Virus record (IMG/VR): IMGVR_UViG_3300034357_000192
Coordinates: 1 to 27,924 of that record
Strand: one strand, 5' to 3'
Length of the DNA: 27,924 nucleotides
Source of the DNA: a virus
Taxonomy: Duplodnaviria > Caudoviricetes
In this document: one piece after another, positions 11,262 through 24,228 of the stretch
How the letters are laid out: every line of letters starts with the position of its first letter
How positions within the stretch are numbered: position 1 is the first letter of the stretch
The notes under the pieces: generated by a model
The model's input: the letters and a program-made list of their open reading frames with translations, nothing else
The model's database searches: none
What the model was told of the DNA's origin: nothing
Made by a program: the position numbers and the translations under genes

Positions 11262-11602
11262 TCTGTTAAGTTAACTATTGATGGTTCACTATCACTAACT
11301 GCAATTGAGAAATCAATGCAAGTATAGGTGCTTTCACCTATGGTTAAGTCTTGTCTTGTACCATTAGGTGTATCAGTTGTTATCCACAAGGTGTAGCCTT
11401 GTAGTGGGTCAATCAATACTCCTTCAATGGTAATGTTACCAAACTCATCACTAATGCTTACAAAGGTCTGAATGCGACCAGTAGCCTTATACTGGATGCA
11501 CACAAGGTAAGAGGTGTCAGGTTCAGCCACCCCAAAGGTGAGACCAGTAGCACATACATCTACATAACTGCCTGAGTCGTAACAAGGTGAACAAATGCTC
11601 AT
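11258..11602 (-). CDS. Hypothetical, probably structural protein (114 aa)
   Basis: Start moved to ATG 11602 (MSICSPC), an ATGA overlap with the terminase stop. Confidence 0.7.
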   Translation of the reverse strand: MSICSPCYDSGSYVDVCATGLTFGVAEPDTSYLVCIQYKATGRIQTFVSISDEFGNITIEGVLIDPLQGYTLWITTDTPNGTRQDLTIGESTYTCIDFSIAVSDSEPSIVNLTE

Positions 11603-12920
11603 AGATATCGTTTTAAAATTGAATTCACAAAGTAACGGAAACAATCAAGAAAATCTGCTCTCTCTGATAAGTTTTTTCGATTGCTCTTAATGATACCACC
11701 ATCAGCATTACATTGTACTTGTTTAGCATCATATACAAGACCTTTACACTTAACTGAGTTAACTCTTATGTCAAGTCGTGTTAGTGCATTGTTGCAGTCT
11801 ATTCGACTATTGTAGTGGGTAGGATTAGCTGGTATGATTATCTGACTATCTGCAAGGTGTAACCTACGTTTGATTTGGGTATAGGCTGAACTATTATCTC
11901 TTTGTTGAATGCTTCTACCATTACCCATTGCATCACCAGTTATCCTAAGTAGACCACGAGGTACATTAAGACTTTCAACATAATCACAGAATGCATCAAT
12001 GCTACCCTTGTCTATATTTATTTCACCAACTACTGAACAACCTTTAGTTGTGTGCTGCTGAATGATTAATGCTGATAGTGGGTTAATGTTAAAGTCAACT
12101 GATACAAATACTGGTATGTTAGGATTGATGGTTAGTGAATCATCAATATGTCTATCATCATCCCACGCATAAAGGAATGGGTTAGATACATCATCCATTA
12201 CATCCCAGTCACCTTCAACAAATCGTGCATACTGAATTGGTGGTAGTTCTTTAAGTGACTCAAGATAGTCTTGACTTATGTATGGGTTATCTGTGATGCG
12301 TGAGTTTATGTAGCACCACTTATCAGGTAGTGTATTGTTTCTCCACCTTTCATAGATAACTGACTTAACCCAATTGTTAGCTGGGTTGCAAGTAGCCAAA
12401 CATACTATTGGTGCTTGACCTATAGCTTTATTCCAACTACCTATACGTTCTTGCACCTTGTAGAATGTAGCCTCTTGTAGTTCGTTAACCTCATCAAGTC
12501 CAGCACCATTCACCTCAAGTCCTCTGAACCTATTCAAGTCCTTGTCATCATCATAACTCTCAGCCATAAAGATTAACTCTGAACCATTGGTGAATGTAAC
12601 CACATTGGTCTCACGATTCCAAGAACTTATGTATTGATTCAATCCATCATTGAGTATTGAACTGAATGATGGAAAGGTAGTACGTTTAAGGTCAGGTAGT
12701 GTCTTACGAATGATTACCCATCTTGAACGTGGGTATAGTAAACATAGTGAAGATAGTGTTAAAAGTAACCAGTAGGTCTTACCACCTCGTTATTCTTTCC
12801 CCCTTACATTTCTGCAAGGGGCAGCCATCGTATAGCACCACCGAATACAATAACCTTCTTGTATCCGTTGATAGCCATATCGTAGGCTTTAGTTTGTCTC
12901 TTAGTTAGTTTAAAACTCAT
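11599..12920 (-). CDS. terL: Terminase large subunit in two segments (12920-12828 and 12786-11599), 426 aa when joined
   Basis: The tracked ORF has Walker B (GAGLDE), CNP and RNase H-like motifs (VSVDFN, DFLDCFRY) but no Walker A. ATG 12920 (ATGA overlap with terS) gives MSFKLTKRQ...VIVFGGAIR, and 41 nt later another frame resumes GGKTYWLL...RWVIIRKTLPDLKRTT. Confidence 0.92.
12787..12827 (-). other. 41-nt structured coding gap in the terL Walker A motif (candidate translational bypass element)
   Basis: CGA|TGGCTG CCCCTTGCA GAAA TGTAAGGGG GAAAGAATAA CGA|GGT. Matching CGA codons, a 9-bp hairpin, and TAA stops in both coding frames. Confidence 0.75.
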
Positions 12921-13363
12921 TCGTCCTTATCTCCCTCTGTTCTAATTATGATTAAAGGCTCAGTAGTGTACATTGTGCTTTCACCATTGTTTGCCCAAAG
13001 TTTTCTTTGTCTATTAGCTAACCAATGTTTTGCTGCTGGTGTATCGGGTGGCAGTTCTTTTCTTAGTTGTACTATCTGCCCGTCCTTAGTTAGTGCCTCT
13101 TCAATGATTGTAAGACCCAATGCTCTTTTATACATTGCCCTTGCTACTTTGCCATCAGCATCTTCTTTTCCTTGCGTTAATGACTTAAGAAATTCAGGGT
13201 GTTTGTGTTTCCAAGCATTAAATGTCACCTCAGATATTCCAATGATGTTAGACATCTGAACATCAGATAGACCGAGCAAAGCCATCTCAAAGACTTGGTC
13301 ATTGAATATTTCTTTATACTCAGTTGGTCTACCTACACTATTAGGTTCATCTTGACTATTCAT
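12917..13363 (-). CDS. terS: Terminase small subunit
   Basis: GRPTEY, an HTH (LSDVQMSNIIGISEVTFNAWKHKHPEF), and YKRALG...PPDTPAAKHWLANRQ. Directly upstream of terL. Confidence 0.88.
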   Translation of the reverse strand: MNSQDEPNSVGRPTEYKEIFNDQVFEMALLGLSDVQMSNIIGISEVTFNAWKHKHPEFLKSLTQGKEDADGKVARAMYKRALGLTIIEEALTKDGQIVQLRKELPPDTPAAKHWLANRQRKLWANNGESTMYTTEPLIIIRTEGDKDE

Positions 13364-13494
13364 CTTTTACGTTTTGATTTTTCTGCTTCAGCATAAGCAA
13401 TAGCTACCGCTTGTTTAGGCTCATAACCTTCTTTGATTAACTTCTGAATATTCTTGTTGATTACCTCGTATGTATCTCCTTGTATGAGTGGCAT
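13360..13494 (-). CDS. Small basic phage protein, 44 aa (MPLIQG...KQAVAIAYAEA)
   Basis: Below the ORF-track cutoff. The MPL..G....I..NI..L..EG...KQAVAIA pattern is common next to packaging genes. ATGA overlap with terS. Confidence 0.8.
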   Translation of the reverse strand: MPLIQGDTYEVINKNIQKLIKEGYEPKQAVAIAYAEAEKSKRKR

Positions 13495-13510
13495 AGGTAT
13501 CTGTTTGAAT

Positions 13511-13897
13511 TTACAAAGTTACAAAAGAATTTAGTTTGTCAAGTGATATGAATTTCTGTAGTTCAAAACCTTGAGCCTTAAAGTTCATTGTTGTGCAATG
13601 CTCTATGATATAATCTTTAGGCACTAACCATCTACTTTGTTCATCTACTATCTCAACTTTGTCAAATGTCACACCATTCTCTATTAGGTAGTAGTTGATG
13701 CCATAAGAGTTATTGACTCTCATAAGATGCTTAGACCTTGACCTAACCAGTCTTAATGTTTTTGTTGCTTTGTCTATTTGACCTATGGCTCTCTTCTTAC
13801 CATCAGCAAGTAGCAATGATAGATTGATGATTGAATCTTTATGTGTGGCAATTAACTTATTACCACTTGAATCTTCTATGGTGTGGGTCTTGTTCAT
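13511..13897 (-). CDS. Hypothetical protein (128 aa)
   Basis: ORF with ATGA coupling to the upstream gene. Confidence 0.75.
   Translation of the reverse strand: MNKTHTIEDSSGNKLIATHKDSIINLSLLLADGKKRAIGQIDKATKTLRLVRSRSKHLMRVNNSYGINYYLIENGVTFDKVEIVDEQSRWLVPKDYIIEHCTTMNFKAQGFELQKFISLDKLNSFVTL
13514..13542 (-). promoter_or_regulatory. Bacteroidota-type promoter for the packaging/tail operon
   Basis: TTG-N18-TAACTTTG, ending 19 nt before ATG 13494. Confidence 0.6.
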
Positions 13898-17991: not shown

Positions 17992-18106
17992 AAAAAAAAT
18001 ACCCTATGAGGACTGCGGTCGAATCGGTTCAGATTTTACTCCTTACCTCGCAGTCACCATAGGGTGACAATGTTTTACAATTCATTCAGGATTCGACCTC
18101 TGAATG
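17992..18106 (-). ncRNA. Structured leader RNA: two hairpins with 9-nt complementarity and a U8 tract
   Basis: Hairpin 1 is CATTCAG-AGGTCGAATC-CTGAATG. Hairpin 2 is ACCCTATG..GACTGCG-loop-CGCAGTC..CATAGGGT-A-T8. GGTCGAATC is the exact complement of GATTCGACC. Confidence 0.7.
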
Positions 18107-18140: not shown

Positions 18141-18209
18141 TAATCAGAGCAGAATTCGAATCTACAATTGGCTTATAAGTTCCCGTGTTACCAATTACAC
18201 TATCTGACT
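18141..18209 (-). tRNA. tRNA-like element/pseudo-tRNA with a degenerate anticodon arm
   Basis: Acceptor AGTCAGA/TCTGATT, T8-A9, D arm GTGT-AATTGGTA-ACAC, T arm GTAGA-TTCGAAT-TCTGC. Only 19 nt lie between the D and T arms, and there is no encoded CCA. Confidence 0.65.
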
Positions 18210-23484: not shown

Positions 23485-23662
23485 TTAACTTAATGAATTT
23501 CTCCCACTTCAATTCAAAGCAAGACTTATCTCGTAGGTTTGACCTCAATACATTCTTAGCTACATAGATTGGCATTTCACGTTCAGTCACATAATGCTTT
23601 ACCACAATTAGCAGTCTTTCATCTGCTTCTTCTTCGTCCATTGGTAAAGTACATTCTCTCAT
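23462..23662 (-). CDS. Hypothetical protein (66 aa)
   Basis: ATGA-coupled to the PAS-HisKA gene. Confidence 0.65.
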   Translation of the reverse strand: MRECTLPMDEEEADERLLIVVKHYVTEREMPIYVAKNVLRSNLRDKSCFELKWEKFIKLIGGYATR

Positions 23663-24228
23663 AATTGCCTTGTTGCTTTCTTGACTAATGCGTGGATTGA
23701 TTCATCTAATCTCTTCATTGAATCGTCAACCATCTTTAGTAGTTCAGTCTGCTCTGAATCATCCGTCTTACCCTCTTTATCAAGCAGCAACTTAACCACT
23801 CCAGCAACTGATGTTAAAGGCTGCCTTAGTTCATGGCTCAACATAAACCTAAACTCTTCAAGTAACTGCTTTTGTTTCTCATGTTCGTGACTTGTGATAC
23901 TGGTCACATCAGTAATTTGAAAACCAATAAAGTGAAGACTACCAAGTATTGCGTAACAATTCCACAAGCACCACCTTAAACCACTATTTTTCTGCTTGGT
24001 TCGTGCGTAGATTCTAACTGGATTAGGTGTGATTTCAATGGCTCTCTTAACTGATTCAACATAATCATCAAGTTCAGTATCATCTGAAATTATATCACTA
24101 ACTTTTTTAGGTTTAATGTGAGATGAATACTCTTTAAAGAGGTCATTAGAACTAACTATTTTACCCTCATAGTCAGATACGACATATAGCAAGTCAATAG
24201 AATTGGCTAAGATGTATATTGCTGACAT
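23659..24228 (-). CDS. PAS-like plus HisKA (DHp) protein lacking the HATPase domain
   Basis: PAS-like segment YVVSDYEGKIVSSN...KNSGLRWCLW...ITDVT, then the H-box FRFMLSHELRQPLTSVAG and a second helix, then stop. Confidence 0.85.
   Translation of the reverse strand: MSAIYILANSIDLLYVVSDYEGKIVSSNDLFKEYSSHIKPKKVSDIISDDTELDDYVESVKRAIEITPNPVRIYARTKQKNSGLRWCLWNCYAILGSLHFIGFQITDVTSITSHEHEKQKQLLEEFRFMLSHELRQPLTSVAGVVKLLLDKEGKTDDSEQTELLKMVDDSMKRLDESIHALVKKATRQL

Follow-up and report, generated by a model that had tools for sequence, protein, structure and literature searches.

A stop-containing hairpin gap at the Walker A motif of phage terminase genes, carried in a mobile HNH cassette, as a candidate for programmed ribosomal bypassing

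The terminase large subunit gene (terL) of the lake phage record analysed here is interrupted in its Walker A motif by a gap with stop codons and a hairpin, and we estimate a probability of about 0.7 that the full-length terminase is produced by ribosomes that leave the message at the first Arg codon and land on the triplet ahead of GGK, that is, by programmed ribosomal bypassing. This explanation had been offered in a preliminary description of the locus and proved the best of those weighed, the gap being family-wide, selected and stop-containing. New beyond that description are a stem-loop in the coding sequence at the take-off codon and a mobile cassette with an HNH nuclease. The window, our name for the whole stretch of DNA analysed (27,924 nucleotides), corresponds to a virus record of 27.9 kb with a completeness of 79%; its minus strand encodes terS, terL, portal, helicase, and endolysin.

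The terL coordinates of the preliminary description all hold (Table 1). Translation from ATG 12920 yields MSFK...VIVFGGAIR up to CGA 12830-12828 and continues as WLPLAEM before TAA 12806-12804, while a second frame follows TAA 12792-12790, opens with CGA 12789-12787 and reads RGGKT... until the stop at 11599. Removal of the gap gives a TerL of 426 codons (31 + 395), the size of the protein of an intact relative (P0003, 426 aa), and GGAIRGGK is nearly invariant in intact terL relatives. The hairpin is also as described, with CCCCUUGCA (12821-12813) pairing with UGUAAGGGG (12808-12800) around a GAAA loop and including one G-U pair; the stem begins 6 nt past the first CGA, and its predicted energy of -16 kcal/mol (z -3.8) was equalled by none of 200 shuffles. 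CGA is indeed an uncommon Arg codon nearby, with 19 of 260 uses in 25 window genes compared with 142 for AGA and 48 for CGT.

Table 1. Features of the interrupted terL locus in the window
Feature	Position	Strand	Basis or remark
terS, terminase small subunit	12917..13363	-	PHROG 309, E 1.7e-35; ORF list; stop overlaps terL ATG
terS/terL junction, site of the HNH gene in the near twin L011	12910..12925	-	nuclease absent in the window; precise loss inferred
terL first segment, 31 codons, ends GGAIR; part of the mobile cassette	12828..12920	-	near-identity to L006, L011, L016, L036
5' stem-loop in the coding exon, directly adjoins the take-off codon	12831..12879	-	predicted fold; covarying basal pairs
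First Arg codon CGA, putative take-off (P-site) codon	12828..12830	-	CGN in 73/73 insert haplotypes, AGR never
6-nt spacer UGG CUG	12822..12827	-	length fixed, sequence variable in the family
Gap hairpin, 9 bp, GAAA loop, includes the frame-0 stop	12800..12821	-	fold prediction, covariation
A/U-rich 3' spacer, no U tract	12790..12799	-	family range 7-10 nt after the G run, mean 78% A+U
Second CGA, putative landing triplet, not decoded	12787..12789	-	replaced by TGA or CAA in 4 relatives whose ORF2 is intact or open
terL second segment, GGKT... to C terminus, 395 codons	11599..12786	-	PF03237, PF04466

The insert is present in the DNA, and an assembly error, which had been raised as a possible origin, is ruled out by independent contigs that carry it. 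Run X1, possibly the source of the record, contains the stretch unchanged at a depth of 36, and a 355-nt contig from another study (X4) covers 12685-13039 with no differences. The joined, gap-free form was found in none of four runs, all of them represented by contigs, which drop rare variants. The cassette DNA had no match among 50,697 phage records, the best proteins reached ~30%, no cultured carrier was seen, and none of 44 GTDB loci bears the insert.

We collected 45 distinct inserts of 39-44 nt in 73 haplotypes, all at the Walker A Arg codon of terL proteins that are 40-100% identical to that of the window, and compared them with 109 intact haplotypes. Protein searches blind to the insert recovered it in 7 of 80 terL loci and, from a distant clade, in 17 of 77 (two of 79 loci were set aside for a different Walker A). 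Pattern scans in which the end codons or the hairpin were unconstrained added further inserts, after 1 of 50, 5 of 53, 1 of 51, and 57 of 96 rows had been discarded as chance matches; in the 51-row scan, the three new contigs were examined. Most patterns demanded the 6-nt spacer and the C run and could let other designs escape; the two protein searches and two pattern scans free of that demand returned no other design. A covariance model (R1), which held only four exon pairs and was used purely as a sequence model, gave one strong match in the window. Truncated terL database entries of 386, 378, 324, and 321 aa are likely to be insert alleles of this kind.

The shared architecture consists of a CGN codon, 6 nt, a C4..G4 hairpin, 7-10 AU-rich nucleotides (mean 78% A+U from G run to landing), and a landing triplet, with an in-frame stop. 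In 44 of the 45 inserts, 6 nt separate the take-off codon from the hairpin. Hop lengths are 41 nt in 44 haplotypes, 39 nt in 22, 40 nt in five, and 44 nt in two; these lengths place the second segment (ORF2) in all three frames, so that no single frameshift or readthrough fits, and both were rejected. Alignment of related terL genes places the inserts at the same codon, with covarying stems: 57 cells are changed on both sides, and the covariation score of 0.327 was reached in none of 500 shuffles and exceeded slid controls (at most 0.178), in an alignment that mixes stem lengths and holds distant alleles partly out of register. The sense strand folds better than the antisense strand in 37 of 45 inserts, and G-U pairs make up 92 of 563 predicted pairs. 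With 45 distinct inserts at one site and ORF2 kept, the insert is functional and family-wide, and not an inactivating accident; the ACGA target duplication proposed for such an accident is not kept in relatives.

The end codons are more variable than the window would suggest. Matched CGA codons are present there as described, but family-wide the two triplets are identical in only 27 of 73 haplotypes. Take-off triplets are CGA (58), CGG (13), CGC (1), and CGT (1), and landing triplets are CGA (34), CGT (23), CGC (11), TGA (3), CAA (1), and AGA (1), so that both ends are CGN in 68 haplotypes and the other five land on TGA, CAA, or AGA. ORF2 is open after the TGA and CAA landings (411 aa; 368 aa up to the contig end), and since these triplets precede open ORF2s, the second triplet would not be decoded and the first would supply the Arg. 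AGR landings occur in none of 57 near insert alleles vs 11 of 101 intact near alleles, haplotypes that are not independent. It is possible that the landing codon is the recipient's own Arg codon, in which case its conservation is weaker as evidence. In five distant hosts, the Arg anticodons recovered by a non-exhaustive search pattern were ACG and TCT alone.

A frame-0 stop lies in the gap of all 45 inserts (codon +1 in 12, +2 in 16, and +7 to +9 in 17), all three stop codons occur, and the 6-nt spacer itself holds the stop in 28. The idea that the hop senses Trp-tRNA supply through the UGG after the take-off codon does not extend to the family, where this codon is TGG in 16 of 45 inserts, a stop in 12, and one of seven other sense codons in 17; nor is TGG scarce in the window (67 uses). 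In three loci (L050, 2960-3006; L089; L117, 1504-1550), the inserts start with GGT TAG or GGC TAA, and decoding would resume at a Gly codon identical to the one that opens the insert. Here, Gly may have replaced Arg as the point of take-off, which would place a stop in the A site, a situation known from gene 60 homologues.

In the window, the 49 nt of coding sequence that directly precede the take-off codon fold into a stem-loop with a predicted energy of -19.3 kcal/mol. Under randomisation of synonymous codons, z values below -2 were obtained for 28 of 28 near insert alleles vs 5 of 85 intact alleles and, in far clades, for 7 of 14 insert alleles vs 0 of 8 intact, counts that reflect shared ancestry and are not independent events. 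Distant clades form the basal helix from other nucleotides, and its cells are paired in 91% of cases in 43 carriers vs 57% in 93 intact alleles. Between the end of the upper 9-bp helix and the take-off codon lie 11 nt, and the loop starts 28 nt before the codon. This stem-loop accounts for the near-constant ATA. The first-segment (ORF1) residues common to carriers also encode the stem-loop, and a nascent-peptide signal would be inseparable from it by sequence. Structure 3' of the landing triplet, which could form a forward barrier, is not enriched in insert alleles, and a pairing of the exon with the spacer and CCCC, noticed by eye in several alleles, was inconsistent and left uncounted.

The cassette comprises a NUMOD4-HNH gene, a replacement first exon with the strong stem-loop, and the hairpin gap. 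The nuclease gene (PF07463, PF13392) lies between terS and terL and overlaps the terL start. Among haplotypes with at least 700 nt upstream, it is present in 33 of 66 with the insert and in none of 104 intact ones, and all 33 genes have an open frame of at least 160 aa. In whole records, the nuclease occurs in 11 of 19 insert-bearing genomes vs none of 29 intact ones, in one of the 11 at a distance of ~9 kb. The near twin of the window, L011, has a 174-aa NUMOD4-HNH gene in place, and we infer that the window, with exon and gap and no nuclease, arose by a precise loss. Locus L297 combines an insert identical to that of the window with a different HNH gene (47% against the main type), and within 1.2 kb no match to terS was seen; its region upstream of terL is, on its sequence, a case of nuclease swapping.

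The first 84 coding nucleotides of the window show one difference from those of L006, L011, L016, and L036, vs 24-30 differences from 11 intact relatives that are at least 96% identical in ORF2, whereas the 87 nt past the landing show 5-10 differences from both carriers and intact relatives. This near-identity of the exon, together with the even divergence past the landing, implies that exon and gap move together and that the right boundary is the landing codon. On a FastTree tree of 148 ORF2 proteins, the insert state changes at least 26 times, 15 of them forced by starred branches, with gain and loss not told apart, and dS is lower in ORF1 than in ORF2 in 13 of 13 same-insert groups. A homing cycle would fit these patterns: by analogy with T4 gene 60 and MobA, the HNH nuclease would cut intact terL close to the conserved codons of its Walker A motif, the cassette would be copied during repair, and the gap would shield the carrier from re-cutting. 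The linked homing endonuclease is also a simpler reason for the insert than the proposed limiting or timing of terminase synthesis, which finds no support here.

The hairpin itself may have a separate history. In 6 of 30 contigs (L522, L523, L530, L535, L536, and L540, at 301-322), the hairpin of the window recurs, exactly or nearly, in intergenic positions ahead of U-rich tracts, and it is plausible that the gap hairpin derives from a captured terminator hairpin. At terL, no terminator-like site was found in 11400-13700, and in all 45 inserts the 8 nt after the G run contain at most four T, which is not a U tract.

The interrupted gene appears to be under purifying selection. Of 55 insert haplotypes in which the end of ORF2 could be seen, 52 have a full-length frame and three have one broken by a later stop or deletion, compared with 0 of 94 intact haplotypes; the three (L105, L128, and L303, with a later TGA, deletion, or TAA) represent decay or sequencing error. 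The ratio dN/dS is 0.013-0.075 in 13 same-insert groups, several of them inside a 16-row all-insert clade, and overstates selection after insertion, as much of the ORF2 divergence is older than the arrival of the cassette. In 18 of 19 insert-bearing records, no terL other than the interrupted one is present; six of these records are complete with terminal repeats. The remaining record, G026 (52 kb), has two terL genes, one interrupted and the other with a 425-aa open frame, and is possibly chimeric.

In the mechanism that we propose, the ribosome would pause with peptidyl-tRNA-Arg on the CGN codon and with the gap hairpin 6 nt ahead at the mRNA entry, and a stop in the A site may aid the pause in 12 of the 45 inserts. 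The upper helix of the 5' stem-loop would already have formed behind the ribosome, and zipping of the last 11 nt of this stem-loop would draw the codon from the P site and push the ribosome forward. The gap hairpin would then refold behind the ribosome, the push would end 7-10 nt past the hairpin base, and the tRNA would re-pair at the landing triplet, usually CGN and sometimes a two-of-three match, with decoding restarting at GGN. Ribosomes that do not hop would stop in the gap and release a peptide of 31-39 aa. Bypassing would explain the structure behind the P site, the fixed 6-nt spacer to an entry-channel hairpin, and the free gap length, as well as CGN at both ends with third-position drift and the internal stops. 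Its weak points are the sense codon in the A site in 33 of 45 inserts (the window included), the non-CGN landings in 5 of 73 haplotypes, and a CGA directly at the hairpin base in seven inserts, 7-8 nt ahead of the needed landing, which must be skipped. The narrow 3' spacer, this skipped CGA, and the non-cognate landings suggest an end point of the slide that is fixed as the gap hairpin refolds. That RNA zipping alone measures the hop, with no need for matched codons, a stop, or Shine-Dalgarno pairing, is a tentative extension that we consider rather doubtful.

It is unlikely that the G run acts as a Shine-Dalgarno sequence. Window genes rarely have such a sequence (an SD-like 4-mer precedes 3 of 35) and in ribosomes of Bacteroidota the anti-SD is reportedly masked, which makes help of this kind doubtful. 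A terL 77% identical to that of the window was found on an 8.8-kb contig in a Bacteriovoracaceae MAG (L472), but most other genome matches are to Bacteroidota at 30-46%, which suggests that the host may be one of these.

Several observations could also be read as removal of the gap from the message, that is, as a 39-44-nt micro-intron that an enzyme of host or phage would cut out and re-ligate in trans on recognition of the two hairpins, and that the HNH nuclease would spread, a reading that we regard as unlikely. Such an intron would need no codon match, TGA, CAA, and AGA ends and sense A-site codons would be unproblematic, and it would accommodate the 5'-side distance fixed at 6 nt in 44 of 45 inserts, the pairing of the two spacers in many alleles, by which the junctions would be brought together, and a register (ATACG/...G/N, slashes marking the junctions) that would give the excised piece a terminal G in 72 of 73 haplotypes. 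If true, it would be a new class of micro-intron in bacterial viruses. However, group I and II catalytic cores are much longer than 39-44 nt and the insert is far too short for self-splicing; the group I intron model RF00028 matched none of 20 records, and Rfam found only a tRNA-like element in the window. The 5' exon lacks a terminal U, GUGYG/AY ends are absent, and no frame-restoring register combines a 5' exon U with an intron terminal G. A group I-type splice at GCU/omega-G with a 3' exon that opens with ATT CGC fits some 39-nt alleles, but not the 40- and 41-nt nor the TCC/TTC alleles. One-nucleotide differences in the 3' spacer of otherwise identical inserts (L049/L284 and L385/L383) exclude a cut measured from the hairpin, the HNH protein cannot be the splicing factor as it is absent in 33 of 66 haplotypes, and we know of no such bacterial mRNA splicing route.

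Skipping at the DNA or transcription level, where the hairpin would be deleted in some replicating genomes or passed over by RNA polymerase, draws on the short CG(A) repeat at both gap ends of the window and on the terminator-like, intergenic occurrence of the hairpin in 6 of 30 contigs. Yet the repeat is merely CG in most alleles and absent in the TGA, CAA, and AGA alleles, G-U pairs favour the message strand over the template, and no U tract follows the hairpin; the joined form appeared in none of the four runs, whose contigs drop rare variants, and the exon stem-loop is left unexplained. We consider this reading very improbable. There is likewise only a slight chance that the gene is dead or split, with reliance on co-infecting phages or with assembly of the short peptide and a separately started ORF2 product. 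The second lesions in 3 of 55 insert haplotypes and the second terL of G026, with its 425-aa open frame, would suit such a gene, and reassembling split genes generated by homing nucleases are reported for nrdA and Topo2L. Against this, ORF2 is intact in 52 of 55 haplotypes with low dN/dS, and the hairpins covary across 40-100% protein identity; in the window, TAA stands directly before the second CGA, and the first in-frame start of the second segment is TTG 12642, after GKT, so that the catalytic Walker A lysine would be lost.

Ribosomal bypassing, the reading that we prefer, has its closest parallel in T4 gene 60, where a 50-nt coding gap is linked to a MobA HNH cassette, the gap blocks self-nicking by MobA and outlives the nuclease, and homologues are described with wobble-matched ends, lost nucleases and kept gaps, AU-rich 3' gaps, and GNRA loops (bioRxiv 10.1101/2022.08.31.505936; 10.1101/2024.12.09.627546). 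Zipping of a 5' stem-loop is put forward there as the motor of the slide. The cassette has been called unique (bioRxiv 10.1101/2022.08.31.505936). As far as these accounts describe it, the likeness to terL is one of layout and features: a conserved site receives, as one element, an HNH gene that stands alone, a new N-terminal segment, and a hairpin gap with a stop, the gap often remains after loss of the nuclease, the codons of take-off and landing are related by wobble, the 3' part is AU-rich, and some loops are GNRA. The 5' stem-loops are similarly placed, with the helix end 11 nt (terL) vs 9 nt (gene 60) and the loop 28 vs 26 nt from take-off. In contrast to the gene 60 system as described, the target is terL and not the topoisomerase large subunit at Gly46/Asp45, the hosts are likely Bacteroidota, the codon is Arg and not Gly or Asp, and the gap is 39-44 nt. 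The terL hairpin lies wholly in the gap, 6 nt after take-off, whereas that of gene 60 includes the A-site codon; only 12 of 45 terL inserts have an A-site stop, and non-cognate landings occur. The 5' stem-loop is conserved in the terL family and variable among the described gene 60 clades, and the terL-linked HNH gene sits between genes with a target that is not split into two proteins. The terL cassette works like gene 60/MobA without being a member of that system, from which it differs in target gene, hairpin position, and A-site stop.

The byps of Magnusiomyces capitatus mitochondria, some of which have unmatched ends (PMC5009743; bioRxiv 10.1101/2022.08.31.505936), are, in their published description, also mobile inserts (27-55 nt) in essential genes with an AU-rich 3' part, although they are read by organelle ribosomes, place an unused codon in the A site, and occupy many sites per genome (PMC5009743); the terL insert occupies one site and has a linked nuclease. 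The account of Streptomyces phage phiHau3 likewise reports frame-breaking non-coding blocks flanked by RNA structure in the terminase large subunit gene, but these are 7-10-nt blocks that start with the rare codon UUA, occur in 3 of 100 genes, and are proposed as a sensor, and its description includes neither a long hairpin gap nor a nuclease (PMC10732093). The terL gap also resembles group I introns and inteins in its presumed homing-nuclease-driven insertion at the most conserved terL motif, and differs from them in having no ribozyme core and no in-frame splicing domain. Both group I introns and inteins occur in terL. Searches of the open-access literature returned no description of hairpin gaps at the terL Walker A motif.

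As a programmed event, the bypassing of tens of bases is established in a single family of phage genes and a single lineage of yeast mitochondria. The terL genes described here suggest that pairings of homing nucleases with bypassable gaps exist in further genes and phyla. The 45 natural alleles vary one signal at a time (A-site stop or sense codon, matched or unmatched landing, 39-44 nt, nuclease present or absent) while the stem-loop is kept, and therefore provide a test of whether, as has been proposed, the slide is driven by pairing of the mRNA where it leaves the ribosome.

Other elements of the window were also noted. A tRNA-like element at 18141-18209 (minus strand; Rfam 41.7 bits) has the anticodon UAU, which would read AUA, and a broken anticodon stem, and was missed by ARAGORN. 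A phage tRNA for AUA or CGA decoding was rejected as a component of the system, the element being found in none of 48 relatives (RF00005), with the flank alone matching in 10 of 16. Just downstream of it, at 17999-18067 (minus strand), a long hairpin with a weak Rfam hit is followed by a U run and is probably a terminator. Finally, a histidine-kinase-like protein is encoded beside the lysis genes at 23659-24228 (minus strand; PHROG 10912, E 2.8e-6).
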